Positions 131-16,673 of a stretch of 20,401 nucleotides of DNA are shown here, in pieces. A model generated the notes under the pieces. That model searched no databases and was not told where the DNA came from. It saw only the letters and a program-made list of their open reading frames with translations. Each line of letters opens with the position of its first letter. Positions within the stretch are counted from its first letter, which is position 1. The stretch comes from a virus (lineage: Duplodnaviria; Heunggongvirae; Uroviricota; Caudoviricetes), in the IMG/VR virus record IMGVR_UViG_3300046820_000635; one strand, written 5' to 3'. A program made the translations under genes and the position numbers.

Positions 131-320
131 TTTTTGGTTAGCTGTAGTTTAAGTGAAAGCCTGAGTGTTTCCCGACGGGGATTAGCAAGGGACGCGATAA
201 GTTAGTAGACGAAGATAACAATGGGCCCTGCGTTGTTGGATGCTGCTAATGATGACAACAGAATACCGTCCAACGGAGGACGAGGTGCTCAGAGTTGAGC
301 CAGCTAACCAAAAATATATG
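125..320 (+). ncRNA. Structured RNA with tRNA-like ends (core 136-310, ending in CCA)
   Basis: 125-144 pairs with 301-320 (20 bp, one G-U). D-arm-like TAGTTT-AAGTG-AAAGC; helices 161-166/287-292, 181-187/244-250, 232-237/254-259, 267-271/278-282. Confidence 0.55.
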
Positions 321-395
321 CCGCGGTAGCTCATCAGGTAGAGCAGCAGACTGAAAATCTGTGTGTGGCTGGTTCGAGTCCAGCTCGTGGCACCA
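320..395 (+). tRNA. tRNA-Phe(GAA)
   Basis: Full cloverleaf, loop CT-GAA-AA, encoded CCA. Confidence 0.97.
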
Positions 396-400
396 TGTAT

Positions 401-483
401 GCGACTGTGGCGTAATTGGTAGCCGCAACAGACTTAAAATCTGTCGTTTATTCGTACCGGTTCGAGTCCGGTCAGTCGCACCA
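401..483 (+). tRNA. tRNA-Leu(TAA)
   Basis: ACAGA-CT-TAA-AA-TCTGT, extended variable region, CCA. Confidence 0.95.
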
Positions 484-486
484 TGT

Positions 487-562
487 GCCCTGGTGGTGGA
501 ATGGTATACACACCGGTCTAAGAAGCCGTTCGCTGCGAGTTCGAGTCTCGCCTAGGGCACCA
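487..562 (+). tRNA. Atypical tRNA-Leu(AAG) with A34 and a short variable loop
   Basis: Cloverleaf with loop CT-AAG-AA, Leu-type D loop and 5-nt variable region. Acceptor stem GCCCTGG/CTAGGGC-A-CCA is identical to the tRNA-Leu(TAG) at 683. Confidence 0.8.
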
Positions 563-593
563 AAAATATTTTCACATTGTTAACCAAAATATG

Positions 594-622
594 TTGACAG
601 GTGATAAATTAGAACATATACT
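594..622 (+). promoter_or_regulatory. Sigma70-type promoter
   Basis: TTGACA-17 nt-TATACT, upstream of tRNA-Leu(TAG) and the GOLLD-like RNA. Confidence 0.8.
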
Positions 623-682
623 ATATAGATGCTGTTAACAAACAGCAACAAATGTTCTTTAAAAAGTTAGTGTAAGAATTAT

Positions 683-767
683 GCCCTGGTGGCGAAATTG
701 GTAGACGCACCAGATTTAGGTTCTGGCGCTGAAAGGCGTGTCGGTTCGAGTCCGACCTAGGGCACCA
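683..767 (+). tRNA. tRNA-Leu(TAG)
   Basis: CCAGA-TT-TAG-GT-TCTGG, long variable arm, CCA. Confidence 0.97.
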
Positions 768-770
768 TAG

Positions 771-884
771 TTCTTATAGTTCTGTATACGAAGGCGTAGG
801 CCACGCTGATGTGACGGAGCACAGCTTGATGTTTTTCTTCAGGTCTGCAGGTTCGACTCCTGCAAGTGTACAGAACTATAAGAA
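771..884 (+). ncRNA. tRNA-like RNA with an extended (16-19 bp) acceptor-like stem
   Basis: Perfect inverted repeat TTCTTATAGTTCTGTA (771-786)/TACAGAACTATAAGAA (869-884). It encloses a D-arm-like GCGT-AGGCC-ACGC, an irregular middle arm and a canonical T-arm GCAGG-TTCGACT-CCTGC. Confidence 0.6.
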
Positions 885-890
885 TTGATA

Positions 891-1779
891 TTTAAGGGCA
901 GCTTAATGTCCTGTAGCGTATGGTTCGCCCAGCGTTACGAAGAATAACTCCTGTGAGGGAGCCAACGATGGAATGCCTACATACCATCGCCAGCAATGGT
1001 TCATTTAAGCAAGCCTGCTCACTACCGTGAGGTAGCGTTCACTGACAAAACCGGTGGATGTAACAATGAAGCAAGTGTATGGGGAAGAACGCACATCGAC
1101 TAGCCTGCAAGGGAACTAGGGTGTGTGAAAAGTAACAGGTGGTGCTGACTTCCATACAAAACCAACTTGCGAATTGGTATGAGAAAGGGTAGCGTTATGT
1201 TCCGAGGGGTCGCTCCTAAGGGGTATAGCGCAATGTTAATGGTTAGTGGACGTAGTAATACGGACACCGATCGTGAAACATCACTGATTACTCCGCGAGA
1301 GGAAAGGTACGTGGTGTGTTGTATTGGGTATGCCAAAAGCGTATTCAGCAACTGAGGCAGCACATCATTGTAGGTTGCAAGTAGCTCATTTGGTAGAGCA
1401 TCTGTCTCTTAAACAGACTGTAGTTGGTTCGATTCCAACCTCGTTAACAAAACGCAAAGACTGCCTCGGTCGTATGTGAAAAGCATCTAATGCTTGACAC
1501 GCAAGTGAATCAAGTCTTACAAAACTCGCAAGGTGGCGTAAGTTTGTACTAGAAGTTTCGTAGCTCGCAAGGCTTAATGGTTCGCAAGATCAACGGAGAA
1601 GAAGGTACAGAGTAGCATACGATGACAAGACTACTGCCTGTCTTTAAAAACGGCGATGCTGGTAACAGACTAGAATACATAGCAATATGGTTTTAGTGGA
1701 AGTCGAGAGAAGGTATGCTCGCAAGGCGTACTATAATGCTCGAGGTGTTACTAGGTTAGGATGTATTCTCAGTCCGCCA
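891..1779 (+). ncRNA. GOLLD-like giant structured RNA
   Basis: ~890 nt with no credible ORF, inside a phage tRNA array. Many GNRA-capped hairpins (GCAA, GUGA, GCGA), a long-range helix 891-901/1638-1648, and an embedded tRNA. The 3' end GTATTCTCAGTCC resembles the GOLLD 3' terminus as I recall it (not searched). Confidence 0.65.
1374..1449 (+). tRNA. Degenerate tRNA-Lys(CTT) embedded in the large RNA
   Basis: D arm (TAGCTCATTTGGTAGAGC), anticodon arm TCTGT-CT-CTT-AA-ACAGA and T arm are intact. The acceptor stem is mismatched and there is no CCA. Confidence 0.7.
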
Positions 1780-1859
1780 CTATATTAAAGCACATTGTTT
1801 AAACCGCGGCTGATTTTAAAGTCGGATGAAGGCGAAACTAACAGTGTGTTTCAATATAG
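1780..1859 (+). ncRNA. Small RNA closed by a 20-bp stem
   Basis: CTATATTAAAGCACATTGTT (1780-1799) pairs with AACAGTGTGTTTCAATATAG (1840-1859), one mismatch. The arm sequences resemble those of the 29-130 element. Confidence 0.5.
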
Positions 1860-1860
1860 T

Positions 1861-1935
1861 GGCCAGGTGGCAGAGCGTTTATGCGCTAGATTGCAAATCT
1901 GGATTAGGATGGTTAAACTCCATCCCTGGCCTCCA
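1861..1935 (+). tRNA. tRNA-Cys(GCA)
   Basis: CTAGA-TT-GCA-AA-TCTGG, U73, CCA. Variant T loop TTAAACT with D-loop GT in place of GG. Confidence 0.9.
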
Positions 1936-1941
1936 TATATT

Positions 1942-2017
1942 GCCTGGTTAACTCAGTTGGTAGAGTTCTGTCTTTACACGGCAGCTGTCGGCGGTTCGAG
2001 CCCGTCACCAGGTACCA
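1942..2017 (+). tRNA. tRNA-Val(TAC)
   Basis: CTGTC-TT-TAC-AC-GGCAG, CCA. Confidence 0.96.
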
Positions 2018-2023
2018 AACATT

Positions 2024-2111
2024 GGAGTATTGGCCGACCGGTTAAGGCAGCAGTTTGCTAAACTGTCGTTCAGAAATGGGCGAGTAGGTTCGATTCCTAC
2101 ATACTCCGCCA
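2024..2111 (+). tRNA. tRNA-Ser(GCT)
   Basis: Loop TT-GCT-AA, long variable arm, G73, CCA. Confidence 0.95.
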
Positions 2112-2132
2112 TATTACACACAAGGAAAATAA

Positions 2133-2312
2133 ATGTTAAAACCAACTAAGACGTACAAAATGAGCAAGTCACTCAAGACCAGCTTGGCACTGAGTGGCTA
2201 TCAAGACCCACATCGTAAGGGTCAATGGAAACGTGCCATGATCGATGCGGAGTTGGCCGCAGCAATTCAGCCCAAGCGTGAAAAGTCACGCCGTGACGCA
2301 CCTTCTGCATAA
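2133..2312 (+). CDS. Hypothetical basic protein, 59 aa (MLKPTKTYKMSK...RRDAPSA), not in the ORF track
   Basis: AAGGA Shine-Dalgarno; TAATG coupling to the next gene. Confidence 0.75.
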   Translation: MLKPTKTYKMSKSLKTSLALSGYQDPHRKGQWKRAMIDAELAAAIQPKREKSRRDAPSA

Positions 2313-2899
2313 TGAACAAAGAGCTCTGGCCGTTATTTTCTAAGCCTATTTTTAGGACTCCGATAGATTTATCTAATCTAGATCTAAGCAAGATCAAGTG
2401 GGCAAGAAACTATAACAACTGGATCAGTGAAAATCAGAATGTGTTGGATCAACCCGATTTTCAAAATCTTCGAGAGAGTGTATACGGTGGCTTGTCGGAA
2501 TACTTTTATGGCGTTATGAATGCCAGCAACAATGTAGAAATCTACATTACTGAAAGTTGGTTTAATAAAACAGAAAAAGGTCAAAGCCACCATAGGCATT
2601 GGCACCCGAATAGTCTAGTTTCAGGCATTGTTTATATTGCATCTGAAGGTACTAGTGGCAGTACAAGATTCATAACAAGTCAGTTTGATACCATCGAGTA
2701 TAATATTTCAGAATCAAATATATACAACTCTAGAAGTTGGGGTATAATACCAGAAGTTAATACTATGATGTTATTCCCATCAAATGTAGAACATTTGGTA
2801 GAAGAATACCTAGGAGAGTCTCCTAGGATTACATTGAGTTTTAATACATTTGTCAAAGGCAATATTAATGTTGATCCGTTGACTCGACTAAGTTTATAG
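2312..2899 (+). CDS. 2OG-Fe(II) oxygenase-like protein (TIGR02466-like)
   Basis: ESWFN...HHRHWHPNSLVSGIVY...LFPSNVEHLV...RITLSFN pattern. Confidence 0.8.
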   Translation: MNKELWPLFSKPIFRTPIDLSNLDLSKIKWARNYNNWISENQNVLDQPDFQNLRESVYGGLSEYFYGVMNASNNVEIYITESWFNKTEKGQSHHRHWHPNSLVSGIVYIASEGTSGSTRFITSQFDTIEYNISESNIYNSRSWGIIPEVNTMMLFPSNVEHLVEEYLGESPRITLSFNTFVKGNINVDPLTRLSL

Positions 2900-2907
2900 G
2901 TTTAATC

Positions 2908-3165
2908 ATGGTAGCAAGGAACGATATTACTGGAGATTCAATCCAGACCAAAGGCGTTAACAATGCCTATCGTGATCATTACGATAACATTTTTAGGAAA
3001 GATAAAATGCAAGTTCGAGTAGAAGAAAAGGCAGAAGACATCGGACGTTGCGGTTGCGGCCGCAGTCCTACAGGCAAGTGCATTGGCTGGCACGGTTTGA
3101 GTGAAGAAGCATTCCAGGCACGATTAGCCGAATTTAAAGAGCAAAAAGAAGCGTCCGATAAGTAA
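2908..3165 (+). CDS. Small protein with a CDGSH-like Fe-S/Zn motif
   Basis: CGCGRSPTGKCIGWH resembles C-x-C-x2-S-x3-P-x-C-D-G-S-H. A possible internal in-frame start at 3007 follows AGGAAA. Confidence 0.6.
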   Translation: MVARNDITGDSIQTKGVNNAYRDHYDNIFRKDKMQVRVEEKAEDIGRCGCGRSPTGKCIGWHGLSEEAFQARLAEFKEQKEASDK

Positions 3166-3179
3166 AAGAATAGAGTTTG

Positions 3180-3211
3180 CCATTATCGCATAAATAAATG
3201 CGATAGCGGAG
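3180..3211 (+). promoter_or_regulatory. Hairpin containing a TAAATA late-type box and overlapping the HNH ribosome-binding site
   Basis: CC-A-TTATCGCAT-AAATAA-ATGCGATAG-C-GG. TAAATA is at 3191-3196, GGAG at 3208-3211 and the ATG at 3218. Confidence 0.55.
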
Positions 3212-3217
3212 AGCTTT

Positions 3218-3664
3218 ATGAATAATGGAAGATATTACACAGAGTCTTACAAAGCAGGGCAAGCAGCAAAGATAGATAGAAAATATGGTCCTATGCAGGA
3301 TCATATAAAAATCTGTAAATGTTGTGGTAAAGAATATACCTGGCAGGGTAGATTGCATACAAAGGCTTACGCAGAATCTATGTTTTGTAGTAGAAGTTGT
3401 GCTAACAATAGAAGTGAATGGTGGAAAGATAATGCCACTCGTTATAAAACTATTGCATCACACAATCATACTATGAAATGTGTAATATGTGGATTCGATA
3501 AGATTGTTGCTGTTCATCACATTGATGAAAATAAGAAAAACAATGATCCGTCTAATCTAATACCGTTATGTCCAAATCATCACGAAATGGTACATAGCAA
3601 ATGGAAAGAAGAAGTTATTCCGTATATAACGGAATGGCAAAAGAAATATGGGCTGTTGGTATAG
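3218..3664 (+). CDS. HNH endonuclease (free-standing homing type)
   Basis: CVICGFDKIVAVHHIDENKKNNDPSNLIPLCPNHHEMVH, with N-terminal CxxC and CSRSC zinc motifs. Confidence 0.9.
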   Translation: MNNGRYYTESYKAGQAAKIDRKYGPMQDHIKICKCCGKEYTWQGRLHTKAYAESMFCSRSCANNRSEWWKDNATRYKTIASHNHTMKCVICGFDKIVAVHHIDENKKNNDPSNLIPLCPNHHEMVHSKWKEEVIPYITEWQKKYGLLV

Positions 3665-3724
3665 TTGGGAACACAGTAGCTTTGCAAGCTTCAGTCCCCG
3701 GTTCGATCCCGGGACGGTCCACCA
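3650..3724 (+). tRNA. tRNA-Ala(TGC)
   Basis: Loop TT-TGC-AA, G3:U70, CCA. The 5' end overlaps the last 15 nt of the HNH gene. Confidence 0.93.
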
Positions 3725-3734
3725 AGTTTTAAAT

Positions 3735-3810
3735 GCCGTCATAGCTCAGTTGGTAGAGCAACTCACTTGTAATGAGAAGGTCCCGTGTTCGATTCATGGT
3801 GACGGCACCA
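3735..3810 (+). tRNA. tRNA-Thr(TGT)
   Basis: Loop CT-TGT-AA, CCA. Confidence 0.95.
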
Positions 3811-3817
3811 AATATAT

Positions 3818-3891
3818 GCGGGATTAGTTTAATGGTAAAACGAGATCCTTCCAAGTTCAAGTCAGCGGTTCGATTCCGCTATCCCGCTCCA
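3818..3891 (+). tRNA. tRNA-Gly(TCC), copy 1
   Basis: Loop CT-TCC-AA, U73, CCA. The anticodon stem is weak (AGATC/GTTCA). Confidence 0.88.
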
Positions 3892-3898
3892 CATATAT

Positions 3899-3975
3899 TC
3901 CCTGATAGCTCAGTTGGTAGAAGCACTTGACTGTTAATCAAGGTGTCGCTGGTTCGAGCCCAGCTCGGGGAGCCA
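3899..3975 (+). tRNA. tRNA-Asn(GTT)
   Basis: CTTGA-CT-GTT-AA-TCAAG, G73, CCA. Confidence 0.96.
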
Positions 3976-3982
3976 ATAAAGG

Positions 3983-4011
3983 TTGACAACATCCTTAAAA
4001 TGTTGTATACT
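3983..4011 (+). promoter_or_regulatory. Sigma70-type promoter
   Basis: TTGACA-17 nt-TATACT. The inverted repeat ACAACAT/ATGTTGT spans the spacer. Confidence 0.8.
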
Positions 4012-4038
4012 AGTTTTGTTGTCTAGCAATAGGCAACC

Positions 4039-4263
4039 GGTGAAGTGAAGGGTAGATTAGGAAAGACAAACATTAGCTTGCAATGCTAATGATACAACTC
4101 TGGCAATCGTCTTGAAAACGATCGTACTTGTGTGAACCGATTCTATAATATCCTGTCATTTGCTGATCGGAAATTTACAAGTCTCTGTAGCCTGTCTATT
4201 GAAACTTGTCCGGGGATGCCTAAACAGCTACCCACTGTACATTGTCCGGTCTTTTACTTGACC
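4039..4263 (+). ncRNA. Structured ~225-nt RNA or 5' leader of the omega gene
   Basis: Closing helix 4039-4051/4251-4263. Other helices: GGGTAG/CTACCC (4050-55/4228-33), CATTAGC/GCTAATG, ATCGT/ACGAT, ACTTGT/ACAAGT, CCGAT/ATCGG. Confidence 0.5.
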
Positions 4264-4296
4264 TTTCGCTGACCCGTCATATTAAGGAAACAAACA

Positions 4297-4539
4297 GTGG
4301 CACGAATTACATCAGAAGCAGCAGTCGAAGCAATCGGTAACAGATTTAACCTAGTTCTAGCAGCCAGTCAAAGAGCGCGAGAACTAAAGAACGGCCACTT
4401 GCCGATGATCCAATCTAACAACGGTCCCATTCTTACCGCATTAAAAGAAATTGAACAAAAGAAATACACACTAAAAGACTATTTGGAATCTATTCCAAGA
4501 AAGAAAAAAGGACAGAGAGATGAATATTACCCTTCGTAA
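4297..4539 (+). CDS. rpoZ: RNA polymerase omega subunit homolog
   Basis: MARIT...AVEAIGNRFNLVLAASQRAREL...ALKEI matches the omega signature. GTG start after AAGGA. Confidence 0.85.
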   Translation: MARITSEAAVEAIGNRFNLVLAASQRARELKNGHLPMIQSNNGPILTALKEIEQKKYTLKDYLESIPRKKKGQRDEYYPS

Positions 4540-5092
4540 AGCAAACGCACTTCAGCAATCTATTCAAGATGCTATCAAAGGTATCAAGATTGAAACCACT
4601 GTTTCTATCAGTGAGTTTCAGGATGTGAACGCTGAGTTGGCTAAGGCCAACGCTACCCTTGTAACTAATGATGCTCGTCGTCAAAAGTTGTTGGTAGCAC
4701 TCTACAACATTCGCAGTCTTGTTGGTACAGCCAATGCAAACTGCGGTATTGATTTGAATCTTGCCAAGGCTGCATTTATTGACAAGCGTATGGTTCAACT
4801 GCAAGAGATTGCAGATGCAGATCATATCACTGATTTGAATGTCATTAACGGTAAGCTGGAAAAGATTCGTAACCGTAAAGACGAAGGCCGCGCTAGCCTG
4901 TACGGATACGACGACAGCGTTAAAACGTCTATTGTTGATCCAGTTCAGCTTGATCAGGCAAAGACTGAGGTTAAAAATCTCAAGAAGCAGAAGCAAAAAC
5001 TCAATGACGAGATTCTTGAGTTGAACATCAAGACAGAGATTCCTCTGAGCGAAGATGTTGTGGCAACACTGGCAGGGGAAGGTTTGATCTAA
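4520..5092 (+). CDS. Hypothetical helical/coiled-coil protein, 190 aa
   Basis: Long ORF with phage-like codon usage, overlapping the end of rpoZ. Confidence 0.8.
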   Translation: MNITLRKANALQQSIQDAIKGIKIETTVSISEFQDVNAELAKANATLVTNDARRQKLLVALYNIRSLVGTANANCGIDLNLAKAAFIDKRMVQLQEIADADHITDLNVINGKLEKIRNRKDEGRASLYGYDDSVKTSIVDPVQLDQAKTEVKNLKKQKQKLNDEILELNIKTEIPLSEDVVATLAGEGLI

Positions 5093-5094
5093 CA

Positions 5095-5289
5095 GACCCC
5101 GGGTTCCGAGCAACCGTTATTGCTTGGGGTTATTGAATAGACCAAACTATTCACTGTGCGTAGGATCTACAGCAAGGCCTGTTCGGCGACTTGAGAGTAT
5201 CCTAGGTTAACGAATAACAGTTTCCAAAAACTGTAACGTGGACAGAGTAACCGCTCAGTCTAGGGCCTATGTGGTGTAGGTAGCTAGAC
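5095..5289 (+). ncRNA. Multi-hairpin structured RNA (~195 nt)
   Basis: Helices 5106-13/5120-27, 5134-40/5147-53, 5161-66/5199-5204, 5217-22/5229-34, 5258-63/5284-89. No ORF. Confidence 0.5.
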
Positions 5290-5435
5290 ACTTTTGTTAA
5301 TGGTATAGCTCGTTGACCAATGTACACGGTTAACCTTGTCCAAAGCGGGAAGCCTATGATACTAGTAACTGGTTCTGCCTAGCAGACCAACAATAGGTAG
5401 CAAAGAGGATAGCAAACTGTACCATTAACAAAAGT
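5290..5435 (+). ncRNA. Structured RNA closed by a 16-19 bp stem
   Basis: Perfect inverted repeat ACTTTTGTTAATGGTA/TACCATTAACAAAAGT. Internal helices GTTGACC/GGTTAAC, GCCTAT/ATAGGT, TCTGC/GCAGA. Confidence 0.55.
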
Positions 5436-5439
5436 TTGA

Positions 5440-5514
5440 AGCAGGGTGGAGAAGTGGTATCTCGGGAGTCTCATAAGCTCCAGGTCGGCAGTTCGATTCT
5501 GTCCCTTGCAACCA
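5440..5514 (+). tRNA. tRNA-Met(CAT), initiator-like body
   Basis: Loop CT-CAT-AA, 1:72 mismatch, G2-C71, C3-G70 and A11-U24. It lacks the three consecutive G-C pairs in the anticodon stem. Confidence 0.88.
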
Positions 5515-5520
5515 AGTTTT

Positions 5521-5597
5521 CCGTGTGTAGCTCAGCCTGGTAGAGCTCCTGGTTTGGGACCAGGTGGTCGCATGTTCGAATCGTGTCACACGGACCA
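5521..5597 (+). tRNA. tRNA-Pro(TGG)
   Basis: CCTGG-TT-TGG-GA-CCAGG, CCA. Confidence 0.96.
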
Positions 5598-5608
5598 GTA
5601 TCAAATAG

Positions 5609-5614
5609 TAAATA
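5609..5614 (+). promoter_or_regulatory. Candidate late-promoter box TAAATA
   Basis: Lies 9 nt upstream of tRNA-Gly copy 2; the same hexamer precedes several other genes. Confidence 0.35.
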
Positions 5615-5623
5615 TAATCACAC

Positions 5624-5697
5624 GCGGGGTTCGTATAGTGGTAATACCTTAGCCTTCCAAGCTAATGCTGAGAGTTCGATTCTCTTACCCCGCTCCA
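5624..5697 (+). tRNA. tRNA-Gly(TCC), copy 2
   Basis: TTAGC-CT-TCC-AA-GCTAA, U73, CCA. Confidence 0.95.
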
Positions 5698-5703
5698 TAA
5701 TAT

Positions 5704-6273
5704 ATGATACCAGTAATCGACCAAAACGAAATCTTTAAAAAGTTTGATTTTAGTTCCACGATCAGTAAAGAAGATAATACAGAAGCCATAGGCATAATAC
5801 AGAATATTATCGCTGGTGGGAACTATTTTACAAACAGTCCCAAGTATCAAACTAAAGAAAACATATTTTCCAGACAGGAAGCTGTATGGTTAAAATATAG
5901 AATGAGTTTCCTATTTTCAGTTTTTATGTACTTGGGTAAAGAGGTCAAGGTAAGCAATATGATGGCATGGTCTTTTATGACTAATCTGTCAACTGCCGAA
6001 GATAGAAATCGATACTGGCATCATCATCAACACAAAGCAGATAAAAATATGCTCAGCGGCATTATGTATCTGCACATTCCCGCCGATGTCAAAGACATGG
6101 ACTATTGTGGTACAGAAATGGCACCCAATGGCCCCGAAGGCGATGGTAAGTTTTTTATAAAGCCATCGTTCAATAGTTGGCTAATATATCCTAGTAAAGA
6201 ATGGCATCGGCCAGGCATTGTTCAAAGTAACGAATATAGATTTGTTCTGGCTGCTGACATTGAGTACGAATAA
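5704..6273 (+). CDS. 2OG-Fe(II) oxygenase-like protein
   Basis: AWSF...YWHHHQH...LSGIMYL...GTE...IYPSKEWHRP...RFVLA double-stranded beta-helix pattern. Confidence 0.7.
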   Translation: MIPVIDQNEIFKKFDFSSTISKEDNTEAIGIIQNIIAGGNYFTNSPKYQTKENIFSRQEAVWLKYRMSFLFSVFMYLGKEVKVSNMMAWSFMTNLSTAEDRNRYWHHHQHKADKNMLSGIMYLHIPADVKDMDYCGTEMAPNGPEGDGKFFIKPSFNSWLIYPSKEWHRPGIVQSNEYRFVLAADIEYE

Positions 6274-6348
6274 CTGGCGTTAGTATAATGGATAATACAG
6301 CGAGCTTCTACCTCGCGAATGTGGGTTCGATTCCTGCACGCCGGACCA
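6274..6348 (+). tRNA. tRNA-Arg(TCT)
   Basis: GCGAG-CT-TCT-AC-CTCGC, CCA. Confidence 0.94.
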
Positions 6349-6377
6349 TTGACTTTGCTCTTATATCAGTTTACTAT
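6349..6377 (+). promoter_or_regulatory. Sigma70-type promoter, probably giving a leaderless transcript
   Basis: TTGACT-17 nt-TACTAT; the ATG is 6 nt after the -10 box. Confidence 0.55.
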
Positions 6378-6382
6378 TAACT

Positions 6383-6847
6383 ATGAATAATAATTTTAAC
6401 GAATGTTTAAAAGTAGGCAAGGTATGGGAAGCAAGGATTGTTCCTTGGTTGGAAAAATATCTTGGAAAAAAATGGGAAGTAGTAGATACCTCCGATGTTC
6501 ATCGAGATCAAGACGGTGATCAGTTTCCGGACTTTACACTGATAAATCAAGCAACACAAAAAGTATCTTTTATCGATGCTAAGAAGCGTTGCATTTATCG
6601 GCACAAAGGACATAGGCCAAGTTTTGGATTTGATAAAAACTTCTATACCAGCTATACAAATATAGCTAAGAAATACAATACTAAATGTTACGTAGGTTTT
6701 TACGATCCTGCATTTGATGCAAAACATTGGTATTTGTTAGATCTAGATAAACCAGAAGATTTTATCTTTGATTATGGTAACAACGGGTTCGGACAGCCTA
6801 TTTGTTACAGATGGTACGTAGATAATCTACAGAAGTTCAAGCTGTAG
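6383..6847 (+). CDS. PD-(D/E)XK-superfamily nuclease-like protein
   Basis: G-K-V-W-E helix, then FPDFTL...FIDAKKR (PD...D-x-K catalytic pattern). Confidence 0.65.
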   Translation: MNNNFNECLKVGKVWEARIVPWLEKYLGKKWEVVDTSDVHRDQDGDQFPDFTLINQATQKVSFIDAKKRCIYRHKGHRPSFGFDKNFYTSYTNIAKKYNTKCYVGFYDPAFDAKHWYLLDLDKPEDFIFDYGNNGFGQPICYRWYVDNLQKFKL

Positions 6848-6933
6848 TGGGTTGGCAGAGAGGCTTATTGCACCACCTTGGAAAGGTGACGATCCGAAAG
6901 GTTCCGAGAGTTCGAATCTCTCACCCACTGCCA
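6846..6933 (+). tRNA. tRNA-Ser(GGA)
   Basis: Loop TT-GGA-AA, long variable arm, G73, CCA. Confidence 0.93.
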
Positions 6934-6938
6934 GATAT

Positions 6939-7021
6939 GTGCGTTTAGTCTAAATGTTAGGGCGCCATGACGCAGGGCTAGAAACCTTGAGATGCGGGTT
7001 CGAATCCCGTAACGCACACCA
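6939..7021 (+). tRNA. Atypical tRNA with anticodon AGA, an expanded D loop and a 4-nt variable loop
   Basis: Acceptor GTGCGTT/AACGCAC-A-CCA, canonical T arm, anticodon arm CAGGG-CT-AGA-AA-CCTTG. D stem GTC/GAC encloses an ~18-nt loop. Confidence 0.65.
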
Positions 7022-7026
7022 AATAT

Positions 7027-7113
7027 GGAAGGAGAATTCAGCAGGGCTGAACGCTGTTTCGAAAACAGTTGGATCCTATAAGGATTGGGGTTCGAGTCCT
7101 CCTCCTTCCGCCA
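7027..7113 (+). tRNA. tRNA-Ser(CGA)
   Basis: GCTGT-TT-CGA-AA-ACAGT, long variable arm, G73, CCA. The D arm is unusual (TTCAGC/GCTGAA). Confidence 0.88.
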
Positions 7114-7218
7114 AGTTCGGGGGACTGCTAAGAAAACTAGGGATAAGACCTGCCGTTTAACGGGTACCAATAGAATCCTACAAGCTGATACGAACGCAGA
7201 TAACAAGTTCAGCAAACT
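7114..7218 (+). ncRNA. Possible small structured RNA between two tRNAs
   Basis: GTTCG/CGAAC (7115-19/7191-95), TAGG-G-AT/ATCCTA, CCGT/ACGG, GCTGA/TCAGC. The 105-nt spacer is much longer than neighbouring spacers. Confidence 0.35.
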
Positions 7219-7292
7219 GCTCTTATAGTTAAATGGTATAACACTGTCTTGGTATGACAGTATTCGTAGTTCGATTCTACGTGAGAGCACCA
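7219..7292 (+). tRNA. tRNA-Thr(GGT)
   Basis: CTGTC-TT-GGT-AT-GACAG, CCA. Confidence 0.95.
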
Positions 7293-7306: not shown

Positions 7307-7810
7307 ATGTTTTTATGGCAATATGTAGATTTAGATTCTAACGAAGTTGATAGAGTTAAGGAAGTTTTTAAAAATAATCTTCCTTACAACTTTCATTTCT
7401 TTCAGCATCTTGAAATAGGATTAGATCACTTCATGGGTATGAAGATCAGTAGATGTGCCTTGATACAGGTAATGCCAAAACATCAAGGTAAAATACATAC
7501 TGACATTAGGACAGGTTACGGAGGAGTTTTAGCTATCAATATTCCTTTAATGAACTGCGAAAATAGTCTAACTGAACTATGGTCAACGACCGCAGAAACT
7601 AAAGATCAATATACCGAGAATAATCTTCCTTACAGTGTATTCGAAACAGTTCAATGTACAAAAATAGATCAGTTTATATTAGACCGTCCTGTTATTTTTA
7701 GGACAGATATTCCTCACAGCGTGAAAAATAACAGCATGATGGTTCGTCGAGCTATTAGTCTTAGGTTCAAAGACGACCCCTGGCATTTGGTTGACAACAG
7801 TAACAAATGA
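7307..7810 (+). CDS. 2OG-Fe(II)/cupin-like oxygenase
   Basis: GKIHTD (HxD)...LAINIPL...PVIFRTDIPHSV...RRAISLRF. Confidence 0.65.
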   Translation: MFLWQYVDLDSNEVDRVKEVFKNNLPYNFHFFQHLEIGLDHFMGMKISRCALIQVMPKHQGKIHTDIRTGYGGVLAINIPLMNCENSLTELWSTTAETKDQYTENNLPYSVFETVQCTKIDQFILDRPVIFRTDIPHSVKNNSMMVRRAISLRFKDDPWHLVDNSNK

Positions 7811-7825: not shown

Positions 7826-8056
7826 ATGTATAAAATAATAGGTAAAGAAGAAACCTTTAAAGTTCTTACACTAGCAGAGGCGATGAATGTTGCTAAATCG
7901 ATGAACGAGTTTGTTACCATCGTAGGTGACGACTTTGAAGTATGTGGCATGTTCGGAGTAGACAGCGTCAAAGACGGAAAGTGTCCAGACGGTGTTGCCT
8001 ACGATTGGAACAAGGCAAGTCGAATCGGAAGAGTGAAGAAAGAACGAGTGGCATAA
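7826..8056 (+). CDS. Hypothetical protein, 76 aa
   Basis: Directly behind the promoter; TAATG coupling to pth2. Confidence 0.75.
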   Translation: MYKIIGKEETFKVLTLAEAMNVAKSMNEFVTIVGDDFEVCGMFGVDSVKDGKCPDGVAYDWNKASRIGRVKKERVA

Positions 8057-8436
8057 TGGAACATAAACAAGTCATTGTAATGCGTAAGGATTTAAACATG
8101 CGAAAGGGCAAGTTAGTTGCTCAGGGAGCTCACGCTTCTCTTGGCGCAATTTTAAGTCTTTGTAAGCAGGACGGAGACAAGTTAATTCTTGAAATGGACG
8201 AACGTACTAGGCCTTGGCTTACCGGACGTTTCAAAAAGATCTGTGTTTATGTAAATACTGAACAAGAGTTATTAGATATTCATCAGGAAGCAAAACTACA
8301 TGGACTAGTAACCAGCCTTATACAAGATGCAGGTCTAACAGAGTTCGGTGGTGTCAAAACCTATACCGCCGTTGCAGTAGGTCCAGATCGAGAAGATCGT
8401 ATTGATGCAGTTTGTAAACATTTACCGTTATATTAA
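8056..8436 (+). CDS. pth2: Peptidyl-tRNA hydrolase, PTH2 family (true start 8056, not 7942)
   Basis: KQVIVMRKDLNMRKGKLVAQGAHAS...KKICV...IQDAGLTE...TAVAVGP. Confidence 0.93.
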   Translation: MEHKQVIVMRKDLNMRKGKLVAQGAHASLGAILSLCKQDGDKLILEMDERTRPWLTGRFKKICVYVNTEQELLDIHQEAKLHGLVTSLIQDAGLTEFGGVKTYTAVAVGPDREDRIDAVCKHLPLY

Positions 8437-8446
8437 GGAGAACCAT

Positions 8447-9133
8447 ATGAAACGTGTAATCGAAATTCGTGCCGCAGAAGGTGGCGAAGACAGTAAGCTA
8501 TTTGTAAGTGATCTCGCGACCGCATACAGCAAACTAGGAATGAAACTGGGCTGAACTACCCGCCTGATAGATGTGCGTCAAGGTGAATGCAGTTTAGAAG
8601 TTCAGGGCGCAGATTTATCCGGCTTAGATAACGAGCCAGGTGGACATAGGATACAGCGAGTTCCACCGACCGAAAGGAAGGGGCGTGTCCATACAAGCAC
8701 TGTGACTGTTGCCGTCATAGACCGCATGGAGGAAAATGAATCCTCAGCTATACCAGAGAAAGATTTAAAAGTCGAATGGTATAGCGGTACTGGTGCTGGA
8801 GGTCAACATAGGAACAAACACCAAAACTCATGCCGGATAACCCATATCCCTAGCGGTGTTGTAGTTACAGCACAATGCCGTAGTCGGCAAAATAGTTTTG
8901 ACGAAGCTATGTCAACGTTGCAAGAACGTATTGACAACGAAACTAAAAGACAATATAATAATCACATAGCAAGCGATCGAAAGCAGCAAGTAGGATCAGG
9001 GATGCGAGGAGACAAGATTCGTACCTATAGATTCCAAGACGATCGTGTTCAAGATCACTTGACAGGAAAAACAGCAAAATGTTCATCGGTATTAAAAGGT
9101 AACATAGACCTATTATGGCAAAAGACGATATAA
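8447..9133 (+). CDS. prfA: RF1-type class I peptide release factor lacking domain 1, with an in-frame TGA at codon 36 (8552-8554)
   Basis: AAGGAG Shine-Dalgarno, then ATG 8447: MKRVIEIRAAEGGEDSKLFVSDL...KLG*TTRL. The same frame continues to HRIQRVPPTERKGRVHTS (PxT), GAGGQHRNK and IRTYRFQDDRVQDH. Confidence 0.85.
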
Positions 9134-9333
9134 TCGAACTTACTGGACAAATCGAAGAGATTTTGCCAGGTAGCATGTTTAAGGTAAAGGTTGATAACAT
9201 GCCTAATACTTTACTCTGCTACACCAGTGGAAAACTTAAACAACACAAAATCAAAATCGTTCTCGGAGATCGAGTCAAAGTGGAAATAAGTCCGTATGAC
9301 ATGACCCGAGGGCGTGTGACGTATCGACTGTAA
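9115..9333 (+). CDS. infA: Translation initiation factor IF-1
   Basis: MAKDDIIELTGQIEEILPGSMFKV...SGKLKQHKIKIVLGDRVKVEISPYDMTRGRVTYR. Confidence 0.96.
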   Translation: MAKDDIIELTGQIEEILPGSMFKVKVDNMPNTLLCYTSGKLKQHKIKIVLGDRVKVEISPYDMTRGRVTYRL

Positions 9334-9334
9334 C

Positions 9335-9586
9335 ATGACAAAAGAAGTTCCTGTACATCGCGATCAACTAGGTCGAGTAATCAATATGGGCGACTGTGTT
9401 GCCTATCCACAGAGTAATAGTCTTGTCATTGGTGTTGTTCGTAAGATCAATCCAAAGATGATTGGTGTTAGGCGAATTGGTAAAAATGGTTGGGGCAGCG
9501 AGAAAAACAAATATCCTATCGATTGTGTTAAACTTGAAGGTCCTGAAGTTACAATGTTTATTATCAAGAATGCGGGCACAGAATGA
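9335..9586 (+). CDS. Hypothetical protein, 83 aa (possible SH3/KOW-like beta fold)
   Basis: Tight operon packing; RDQLGRVINMGDCVAY start. Confidence 0.7.
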   Translation: MTKEVPVHRDQLGRVINMGDCVAYPQSNSLVIGVVRKINPKMIGVRRIGKNGWGSEKNKYPIDCVKLEGPEVTMFIIKNAGTE

Positions 9587-15265: not shown

Positions 15266-15768
15266 TGGAACTAGTTGAAAAAGCCAGAGTATTTGCAACT
15301 GCGGCACATGCCTCGGCCGCTCAACTACGCAAGTACACCAACGAACCGTACATCGTACATCCAAGAGAGGTAGCACGTATTATAGGAACAGTTCCTCATT
15401 CTTACGAAATGTTAGCGGCTGCTTGGTTACACGATGTTGTTGAAGATACCGGTGTTACCTTAGAAGTTATCCGAGACGAGTTTGGCAATGATGTTGCTAC
15501 ATTAGTTGGATGGTTAACTGATGTTAGTCGTCCTGAACAAGGTAATCGCGCAACACGAAAAGCAATCGATCGAGCACATACTGCAATGGCTCCTGCTGAT
15601 GCGCAAACTATTAAGTTAGCTGATTTAATCTCCAACTGTACTAGCATTGTTGAACATGATTCAACATTTGCTAAGACCTACTTGGAAGAGAAGAGATTAT
15701 TGCTTGAGGTTTTAACCAAAGGCGATCGCGAACTTTGGAAACATGCTAATGAGATTGTGAGCAAATAA
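15265..15768 (+). CDS. HD-domain hydrolase (SpoT/Mesh1-like)
   Basis: RKYTNEPYIVHP...AAWLHDVVEDT...VGWLTD...IKLADLISN. Confidence 0.88.
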   Translation: MELVEKARVFATAAHASAAQLRKYTNEPYIVHPREVARIIGTVPHSYEMLAAAWLHDVVEDTGVTLEVIRDEFGNDVATLVGWLTDVSRPEQGNRATRKAIDRAHTAMAPADAQTIKLADLISNCTSIVEHDSTFAKTYLEEKRLLLEVLTKGDRELWKHANEIVSK

Positions 15769-16673
15769 TGTTTAAGGATGAATTGCAAGAGTATGTGCAA
15801 ACTAGTAACCTAGTCAACATGAAAGAGTGTGGCGATGGTATCTATGTGCTAAAGTACAAGAAGAAGGTGTTCTACGATAACTTGTGGAACGAATACATTG
15901 CAGAATGTCGTGGTTCTATTGTGGACAAGGATTTCAACCTAGTGTCGTATCCATTCACAAAGATCTACAACTATGGTATCGAAAAGGAAGCACCAGTGCT
16001 AGCCAACGATACTCCAGTTACAGCCTTCCGTAAGGTCAACGGCTTTATGGTTGCCTGTACTTGGCACAACGGCGATGTACTAGTTTCTACAACTGGTAGC
16101 ACAGACAGCGACTATGTTGCTATGGCCAAGGAAATGATGTTGACTCATATGCCATGGGCAGATTGGCAACTTGGATTTACTAAGACAGACATGGATGGTA
16201 TGACTGTGATGTTTGAGTGCGTTCACCCAAATGATCCACACATCATTCCAGAAGTTCCAGGCATGTATGTTTTAGGCTATCGTGAAAACTCTTGGGGTAG
16301 CAAGGTTGGGCACGACAAGGACACACTATGGCTCTTGGGCAAAGTGTTTAACTGTCATGTTCCAGAAGTCATAGAAACTACTGTGGGCAACCTAGTAGAG
16401 GCTACTAAGAATGTTCGTCACGAAGGTTATGTATTCTACACAGACGATGGTGTGAGTGCTAAGATTAAGAGCCCTTACTACTTGACTTCAAAGTGGGTTG
16501 CTCGCAATCCACGTACAGATAAGTTAGTAGACTTGAACAAGGACATCAAGCATAATCTAGATGAAGAGTATTATTCACTCGTGGACGCGATTCGTGAAAA
16601 CATTGTGGAGTATACAGCTATGGATGAACAGGCTCGTTTGGCTTGGGTGCGCAACTTTCTGGAGTCGGCCTAA
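15768..16673 (+). CDS. RNA ligase, T4 Rnl1-like
   Basis: PFTKIYNYG, RKVNGFM (motif I KxNG), TTGS, MFECV, EGYV and KIKS. Confidence 0.85.
   Translation: MFKDELQEYVQTSNLVNMKECGDGIYVLKYKKKVFYDNLWNEYIAECRGSIVDKDFNLVSYPFTKIYNYGIEKEAPVLANDTPVTAFRKVNGFMVACTWHNGDVLVSTTGSTDSDYVAMAKEMMLTHMPWADWQLGFTKTDMDGMTVMFECVHPNDPHIIPEVPGMYVLGYRENSWGSKVGHDKDTLWLLGKVFNCHVPEVIETTVGNLVEATKNVRHEGYVFYTDDGVSAKIKSPYYLTSKWVARNPRTDKLVDLNKDIKHNLDEEYYSLVDAIRENIVEYTAMDEQARLAWVRNFLESA

Follow-up and report, generated by a model that had tools for sequence, protein, structure and literature searches.

A conserved in-frame UGA and a downstream RNA hairpin in an RF1-like phage gene: a candidate read-through gate

In eukaryotic viruses, it is established that a hairpin can stimulate read-through of a stop codon. 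Read-through signals with a structure about 8 nt downstream of the stop include the gag-pol pseudoknot of murine leukaemia virus (MuLV) and the UGA followed by a stem-loop in alphaviruses and coltiviruses; read-through at these signals is eukaryotic and is decoded against eRF1. For bacteria, a review of recoding (2016) stated that early stops lying in the same frame had been sought in genes for RF2 or RF1 and were unknown, and named a giant virus of amoebae as the one related case (PMC5009743; PMC3521657). Surveys of huge phages list genes for the release factors (RFs) RF1 and RF2 and mention no such stop, and in our full-text literature searches no description of a UGA-gated RF1 in bacteria or phages was found. 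Here, we describe an RF1-like gene with a single in-frame UGA, referred to as the gate, in a stretch of 20,401 nt from a member of the Caudoviricetes (IMG/VR record IMGVR_UViG_3300046820_000635) that belongs to a family of jumbo phages found in freshwater. The whole stretch is referred to as the window, and all coordinates refer to its full length (Table 1).

An RF1-like gene with one conserved UGA

An earlier reading of this DNA, made from the letters without database searches (the sequence-only reading), had described a Shine-Dalgarno-backed ATG, a TGA followed by A in the frame opened by this ATG, and continuation of that frame to PxT and GGQ motifs, and all of these were found at the positions it gave. 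The program-made list of open reading frames (ORFs) starts the gene only at GTG 8573. When the TGA is read as Trp, the predicted read-through product (P0001) is 228 aa long, and it matched the Pfam domains PCRF over residues 4–88, thus spanning the TGA, and RF-1 over residues 100–204; PCRF was matched only from profile position 103 of 194. In comparison with solved structures, residues 2–226 aligned with residues 87–319 of the Thermotoga maritima RF1 chain (E 2e-44). The partner of the TGA was the Trp of 'KGW' in the Thermotoga protein and of 'QGW' in the RF1 of 1ZBT, as expected from the earlier equation of this codon with the conserved Trp of RF1, and the RF1 homology was unbroken across the stop. 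The lack of domain 1, which had also been proposed, was borne out by the NCBIfam prfA match, which covered profile positions 115–343 of 361 and thus leaves out domain 1; the alignments with solved RF1s, which begin at chain residues 87–112, are consistent with this. In RF1, domain 1 is the part that makes contact with RF3 and with the L11 stalk.

The NCBIfam scores were 212 bits for prfA, 132 for prfB and 45 for prfH, all below the cut-offs. For prfA they were 211.9 against a curated cut-off of 423.25 (TIGR00019) and 212.9 against 400 (NF001859), and for PrfH (RF-H, TIGR03072) 45.1 against 166.65, with only the GGQ domain matched. PPT and GGQ were near-invariant in the wider phage family. The stretch Q-R-V-P-x-T-E...H-T-S aligned with the region of RF1 that specifies UAA/UAG, the third position of the codon-recognition motif was Thr and not Phe, and no SPF was present. 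The sequence following GGQ was distinctive (GGQHRNKHQNS). On these alignments, the gene encodes a phage paralogue of RF1 in which domains 2–4 are kept and domain 1 is absent.

A scan of viral contigs gave 263 relatives, many of them on contigs of 140–424 kb, and 80 loci were kept. TGA was present at the aligned codon in all 80, and the preceding Gly codon and the flanking sites varied. For two further, overlapping sets, a divergent member and an ungated homologue served as starting points, and protein identity reached down to approximately 50%; TGA was present at the gate codon in 85/85 and 80/80 loci of these sets. The three sets include NCBI, JGI and Logan assemblies. Among 122 distinct homologous genes on phage contigs, 118 contained exactly one in-frame TGA, which was located at the Trp codon in 116 and four codons further downstream (W+4) in two. 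The check for TGG in homologues that the sequence-only reading had proposed thus favoured the gate within the clade: TGA is kept, whereas synonymous sites on either side are variable. At its two remaining Trp codons, the RF gene had TGG in every relative. TGG was also found at the conserved Trp positions of neighbouring genes; the exceptions are two single loci that have TGA at Trp positions of poor conservation close to the alignment ends.

Invariant residues encoded upstream of the gate used several synonymous codons (R8: CGT, AGA, CGC and AGG; S16: AGT, AGC, TCT and TCA), which indicates that the pre-gate segment is under selection at protein level; coding selection was present on both sides of the gate. 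A Shine-Dalgarno-like motif preceded the ATG in 93 of the 118 gated homologues, and protein identity went down to approximately 43–45% in the most divergent gated lineages. Judged from these alignments, neither a mutation nor a sequencing error accounts for the TGA, which is under selection at this specific position. A dozen metagenome studies of freshwater and aquatic sites contained near-identical sequences. The gate is also covered by contigs of two metatranscriptome libraries from two studies (X20 and X22, approximately 93% identical); among the differences listed, none falls at 8552–8554. Such libraries can contain DNA, and these contigs show neither transcription nor the absence of editing. 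A BLASTn search with positions 8000–9400 gave no match among phage GenBank records.

Many RF1-like proteins without domain 1 were found among the representatives at 50% identity. These carried TGA at the Trp codon (L228, L233 and L234), TGG at the Trp codon together with TGA four codons downstream (two divergent lineages, L230/L231 and L232), or no gate (P0125 and P0129 (TGG), P0137 (Leu) and P0128 (Ala)). Ungated homologues had W, L, I, F or A at the gate site, and never Cys. In a maximum-likelihood tree, the main gated clade was supported by 99/98, and the gated L233 was placed outside it as sister to the ungated L317 (100/96). The well-supported branches force at least four changes of gate state, of which the exact count is uncertain with several rows on long branches. 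Since the stop is found at two positions and has been gained or lost repeatedly, these results point to the stop as the object of selection, and not to any one residue. Searches for loci related to the distant clade gave one partial match for P0133 and none for P0137.

The gate has affected the way in which the gene is annotated. On long contigs, standard gene callers gave a protein of 183–187 residues starting after the gate. On short contigs, the caller switched to code 4 ('with_TGA=W') and gave 222–231 residues including the Trp; the apparent full-length proteins in databases were shown to be such code-4 gene calls on short contigs. Both versions misrepresent the locus. The terminator of the RF gene itself was TAA in 77, TGA in six and TAG in two of 85 relatives, so that a gate UGA and a terminal UGA occur in the same gene in L080:24–695 and five other loci.

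The hairpin and the context of the stop codon

A weak bulged hairpin at 8561–8584 had been suggested in the sequence-only reading as a possible stimulator of read-through. This small hairpin was not supported (RNAalifold −0.35 kcal/mol with 3 pairs), and a hand-drawn version with 8 pairs showed almost no covariation. What stood was the presence of a structure after the UGA, as a longer hairpin that begins at nearly the same position, 7 nt 3' of the UGA, was found to covary (Table 1). Its minimum free energy was −28.3 kcal/mol (z −2.7). Synonymous diversity reached its gene-wide minimum at codons 33–45, approximately three standard deviations under the mean, with a second dip at codons 53–61, and these two zones of low diversity correspond to the two arms of the hairpin.

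In 51 representatives, 13 of the 16 pairs had changed on both sides, for example between AU, GC and GU at one pair and between AU, UA and CG at another. Paired cells amounted to 72.8%, compared to 63.6% in shuffles, and the covariation score was 0.278, compared to 0.175 in shuffles (reached by 0/500) and at most 0.165 with slid partners. These covariation figures lean in favour of the hairpin, because the window sequence itself supplied the model and because the sequences share ancestry; the slid-partner controls keep this relatedness and were still clearly lower. An independent check by folding was in agreement: the 75 nt after the UGA had a mean z of −2.89 in 55 representatives, with 75% of them below −2, compared to −0.5 to −1.2 for all other windows along the gene. 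Divergent gated members showed different local hairpins of equal stability, and the four ungated homologues were without a hairpin (z +0.4, −0.8, −0.2 and +1.0). The apex differed between members in length and sequence, and some carried an insertion of 15 nt. The hairpin is conserved and is supported by compensatory changes.

The context of the gate was compared to that of genuine TGA stops in three complete or near-complete relatives, G001 (364 kb), G002 (354 kb) and G004 (424 kb), which here stand in for the genome of the window. The leaky UGA context described earlier for the window was borne out in the 118 gated genes, in which the base at +4 was A in 88, G in 25, C in five and never U; U follows 31% of the 467 genuine TGA stops. 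A Gly codon preceded the gate in 110/118 genes, compared to 3% of the genuine TGA stops. An in-frame ATG, GTG or TTG within 25 codons after the gate was missing from 69/118 gated genes, and an in-frame start with a Shine-Dalgarno-like motif was present after the gate in only four. There is no conserved restart codon, and restart therefore does not explain the downstream protein.

Genetic code, decoding and competing explanations

ORFs of at least 120 residues in the standard code cover 83–85% of each of G001, G002 and G004. TGA ends 467 of the 1201 long ORFs of these relatives (approximately 39%) and UAA approximately 53%; within the window, TGA is the stop of 15 of 37 chained ORFs, in many cases as ATGA overlaps. 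A screen for in-frame stops was made in which sites under a longer ORF in another frame (off-frame or antisense alignments of conserved DNA) were removed. In the three relatives, a single in-frame stop was both located in a true coding frame and shared between genomes, namely the one in the RF gene; the few other survivors were located in or near tRNA arrays or were not conserved between genomes. One gene with an RF-1 domain and no RF2 was found in each of the five relatives' records searched, including those of G001, G002 and G004. The genomes are not recoded, in agreement with what had been proposed from the stops of the window.

ARAGORN detected 45–56 tRNAs per relative genome, including one or two tRNA-Trp(CCA) and one tRNA(CUA), together with a permuted transfer-messenger RNA (tmRNA). 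The search for a suppressor tRNA that had been recommended earlier gave no tRNA(UCA) at default thresholds in G001, G002, G004 or the window. Matches obtained at low thresholds (hundreds, some with a TCA 'anticodon') were dismissed as scattered false positives, because none lay on the array strand within an array and none recurred at equivalent sites of the three genomes. No credible selenocysteine tRNA (tRNA-Sec) was found in the phage genomes. The window contains an array of 18 tRNA genes at 320–7292, none of them with a UCA or CCA anticodon, and the RF gene is located just downstream of this array. Four-base anticodons (uuuc and caca, in 8-nt loops) were reported by ARAGORN in phage arrays, at L016:203–277 (corresponding to G001 227532–227606, minus strand) and G004 215231–215318.

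Some of the phage tRNA-Trp(CCA) genes were unusual. A C27-U43 or U27-U43 mismatch with a 4-bp anticodon stem was present at L013:1730–1803 and L036:344–417, and U11-A24 was present at G002 287208–287284 and 300784–300860, G004 210778–210854 and L051:4537–4613. In E. coli studies, a 27:43 mismatch and A24 both increase the reading of UGA. Experimentally, UGA read-through in E. coli is increased by a tRNA-Trp(CCA) with a 4-bp stem (PMC13092985).

The explanation that we favour, and regard as fairly probable, is programmed read-through of the UGA, probably with insertion of Trp, which would tie the dose of an RF1 without domain 1 to the balance between tRNA-Trp and RF2. We infer the occurrence of read-through, the inserted residue and the regulatory logic from the features described above. 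Ribosomes would start at the ATG and reach the UGA at codon 36, where most of them would probably terminate via host RF2 and release a peptide of 35 residues, and some would decode the UGA in frame and complete the 228-residue factor. The decoder would most likely be a near-cognate tRNA-Trp(CCA), encoded by the host or the phage, so that the factor would again have the Trp conserved in RF1. The context, with a Gly codon before the stop and A or G, never U, after it, would promote read-through, and so would the stable hairpin, because it would be positioned at the mRNA entry channel when the UGA is in the A site; the hairpin is spaced as recoding stimulators typically are. Factors of RF1 type do not read UGA, and the amount of phage RF1 made would therefore rise and fall with the ratio between UGA-reading tRNA-Trp and RF2 activity. 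By the RF1-type motifs of the factor, the gate would thus report on the other release factor, RF2. Load balancing is a plausible purpose, given that these phages encode no RF2 and that UAA ends approximately 53% and UGA 39% of their long ORFs. A closed loop is conceivable in which limiting RF2 would give more phage RF1, UAA termination would be taken over by RF1, and RF2 would be freed for UGA.

A gate read by the factor itself has to be weighed against this, since prfB has this layout, with an in-frame UGA early in a gene for a release factor (PMC5009743). A PPT factor that reads UGA, either alone or together with UAA/UAG, would stop its own production at codon 36 when plentiful and permit read-through when scarce. 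The near-invariance of PPT across the wider phage family is in line with such autoregulation, and a UGA-reading factor would be useful to phages that use UGA as widely as these do without an RF2. However, the protein is much nearer to RF1 than to RF2 by its profile scores, and it aligned with the UAA/UAG-specifying stretch of RF1, with Thr in place of Phe and without SPF; direct autoregulation is regarded as unlikely. A dedicated decoder not recognized as such, either a non-canonical tRNA or one of the tRNA-Trp(CCA) with a short stem or A24, would instead translate the gate efficiently, and the gate would then act as a private key, not as a leaky sensor. The 27:43-mismatch and A24 variants, the experimental reading of UGA by a 4-bp-stem tRNA-Trp (PMC13092985), the position of the RF gene next to a tRNA array and the presence of tRNA(CUA) in all three complete relatives speak for this possibility. 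Even so, no tRNA(UCA) was found in the three complete genomes, the variants are missing from G001, an efficient UGA decoder would also pass the ends of 39% of the phage ORFs, and the conserved weak context and the hairpin suggest a mechanism specific to this site and not a global one, which makes a private decoder distinctly unlikely.

The truncated gene calls could be taken to reflect two separate products, with a C-terminal fragment made from an internal start, or a decaying pseudogene without function. The pre-gate codons are nevertheless homologous to RF1 and under purifying selection, restart sites after the gate are scarce, as shown above, and the presence of exactly one stop in each of 118 genes down to approximately 43–45% identity is unlike the decay of a pseudogene; we consider a split or dead gene highly improbable. 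A UGA directly followed by a conserved stem-loop also resembles the bacterial layout of a selenocysteine insertion sequence, at which host SelB and tRNA-Sec would insert selenocysteine. This explanation is barely credible, as the codon aligns with the Trp of RF1 and is never replaced by Cys in ungated homologues, the gate can shift to W+4, the apical part of the hairpin is variable in sequence and length, and no credible tRNA-Sec was detected in the phage genomes.

Several points weigh against programmed read-through as the favoured explanation. The phage is uncultivated, the read-through product is a prediction from the sequence, and the RF2-sensing and load-balancing logic is hypothetical, as is the timed late-infection switch suggested in the sequence-only reading. 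To our knowledge, there is no bacterial precedent for hairpin-stimulated read-through of a stop codon, and no unusually stable 3' structure was present in the gated L229, L236, L231 and L232. The Gly before the gate may be a protein constraint and not a signal, as Gly before Trp is also common in cellular RF1 ('KGW'). The invariant PPT differs from the usual P(A/V)T, so that the specificity of the factor for UAA/UAG is a prediction. Besides, the tRNA-Trp variants are not universal, and the single tRNA-Trp of G001 appears to be of the ordinary E. coli type.

The tRNA(CUA) genes of the three relatives were located at G001 363408–363482, G002 174391–174465 (minus strand) and G004 53129–53203 (loci L099, L108 and L120), and the permuted tmRNA was found a few kb from them, with the tags ANDSVFALAA, ANDSQFLMVA and ANDNVYAAAA. 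The sole candidate for a TAG-gated gene that was found is a frame of 201 codons in G002 (172167–172769, minus strand; MSQA-TAG-INYQ...), approximately 2 kb from tRNA(CUA). Phage RF1 would oppose amber read-through of such a gene. A wider stop-codon circuit is proposed tentatively, and as somewhat less probable than not: the UGA and hairpin would gate phage RF1, RF2 capacity would be measured and UAA/UAG termination topped up, and the private tRNA(CUA) would open a TAG-gated gene against the opposing action of RF1.

Organization of the locus and comparison with known systems

The features of the RF gene and its direct neighbours are listed in Table 1.

Table 1. Positions of the gate, the hairpin and surrounding features in the window.
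Feature	Position	Strand	Remarks
PTH2 (peptidyl-tRNA hydrolase), upstream neighbour	7942–8436	+	Pfam PF01981, E 1.4e-30, match from residue 42
Shine-Dalgarno AAGGAG	8435–8440	+	6 nt 5' of start codon, read directly
Start codon ATG	8447–8449	+	Opens the RF frame
Pre-gate coding segment, codons 1–35 (MKRVIEIRAAEGGEDSKLF...KLG)	8447–8551	+	Homologous to start of RF1 domain 2
In-frame UGA (gate), codon 36	8552–8554	+	At the conserved RF1 Trp codon
Post-gate coding segment, same frame	8555–9133	+	Rest of domain 2, domain 4
Spacer ACUACCC (7 nt), UGA to hairpin	8555–8561	+	First base is the +4 context base (A)
RNA hairpin	8562–8623	+	5' arm 8562–8579, 3' arm 8606–8623
Apical helix of hairpin in window phage	8584–8588/8600–8604	+	
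PPT motif	8663–8671	+	Residues 73–75 of product
Other two Trp codons of RF gene	8777–8779, 9116–9118	+	TGG
GGQ motif	8798–8806	+	Residues 118–120 of product
IF1 (initiation factor), downstream neighbour	9115–9333	+	Pfam PF01176, E 1.6e-19
RF gene terminator TAA	9131–9133	+	Frame open from gate to here

The order of PTH2 and the RF gene was also present in L143. The true start of PTH2 is probably internal, near 8056, because the profile match begins only at residue 42; an ORF of 76 residues (7826–8056) overlaps the annotated start of PTH2. This ORF is in the same frame as the TGA-ended ORF 7307–7810, from which it is separated by 15 nt, and a second gate at 7808–7810 was considered and rejected. 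The two appear to be separate genes, as the downstream ORF was kept in 59 loci and the upstream one in only two. On the other side, IF1 begins within the RF gene: its ATG (9115–9117) shares bases with the final Trp codon of the latter, and the overlap of the genes amounts to 19 nt. Translation of IF1 may therefore depend partly on ribosomes that have passed the gate. Further downstream, an ORF of 301 residues (15768–16673) showed a weak match to the T4 RnlA family of RNA ligases (E 1.2e-8, below the cut-off). Elsewhere, RF relatives were found near genes for RNA ligase or kinase-phosphatase, Macro, Cpn10 and NUDIX proteins.

If true, the proposed mechanism would be the first natural example among bacteria and phages in which read-through in the same frame controls a release-factor gene. 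It would also provide the first read-through signal of bacterial type with a structured 3' stimulator. The cassette, with UGA, spacer and hairpin, is compact (approximately 80 nt) and would give a handle on how RNA structure and context tune the competition of RF2 and near-cognate tRNA-Trp on bacterial ribosomes. It also suggests that giant phages adjust termination capacity during infection, beyond merely supplementing it.

The phage gate shares with the signals of MuLV, alphaviruses and coltiviruses a conserved leaky stop, a short spacer, a stable downstream structure and coding sequence on both sides. It differs in that the competitor would be bacterial RF2, and that read-through would give the body of the protein and not a C-terminal extension. 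With bacterial RF1 (prfA), the factor has domains 2–4, a PxT-type motif, GGQ and the Trp position in common, but it is phage-borne, lacks domain 1, falls below the prfA cut-offs and has a distinctive sequence after GGQ. Recoded phages encode RF1 in the standard code and a tRNA(UCA), and in Jade phages many late genes have in-frame TGA (Borges et al., bioRxiv 10.1101/2021.08.26.457843). These share with the present phages the link of a phage RF1 to decoding of UGA as Trp and the use of stops as regulatory devices during infection; in contrast to the Jade phages, one TGA in one gene is concerned here, TGA is a stop elsewhere, and no tRNA(UCA) was found.

The RF gene of Mimivirus and Megavirus (Jeudy et al., 2012; PMC3521657) is likewise a viral release-factor gene with an internal stop passed by read-through. 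Its host is a eukaryote, its product is of eRF1 type, and it contains two recoding events (read-through and frameshift), whereas the gene described here belongs to a bacteriophage, encodes an RF1-type factor without domain 1, and has one event with a covarying 3' hairpin. With prfB, it shares an early in-frame UGA in a gene for a class-I release factor, wide conservation and an output that would be tied to UGA termination. However, prfB uses a +1 frameshift at CUU UGA C with a Shine-Dalgarno-like stimulator on the 5' side, whereas the phage gene stays in the 0 frame for read-through, has GGN and no CUU-U slippery site before the stop, and carries a 3' hairpin instead. Moreover, the factor encoded by prfB (SPF, UGA), the textbook example of a release factor that controls itself by way of its own stop codon, reads its own gate, which the phage factor by its RF1-type motifs is predicted not to do, so that the regulation would be crosswise. 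The gate is thus best classed as a new form of release-factor recoding beside the prfB frameshift and the Mimivirus RF gene, and for the recoding field it adds a simpler same-frame design that is apparently used by this phage family and in which the codon read by the other factor serves as the gate.

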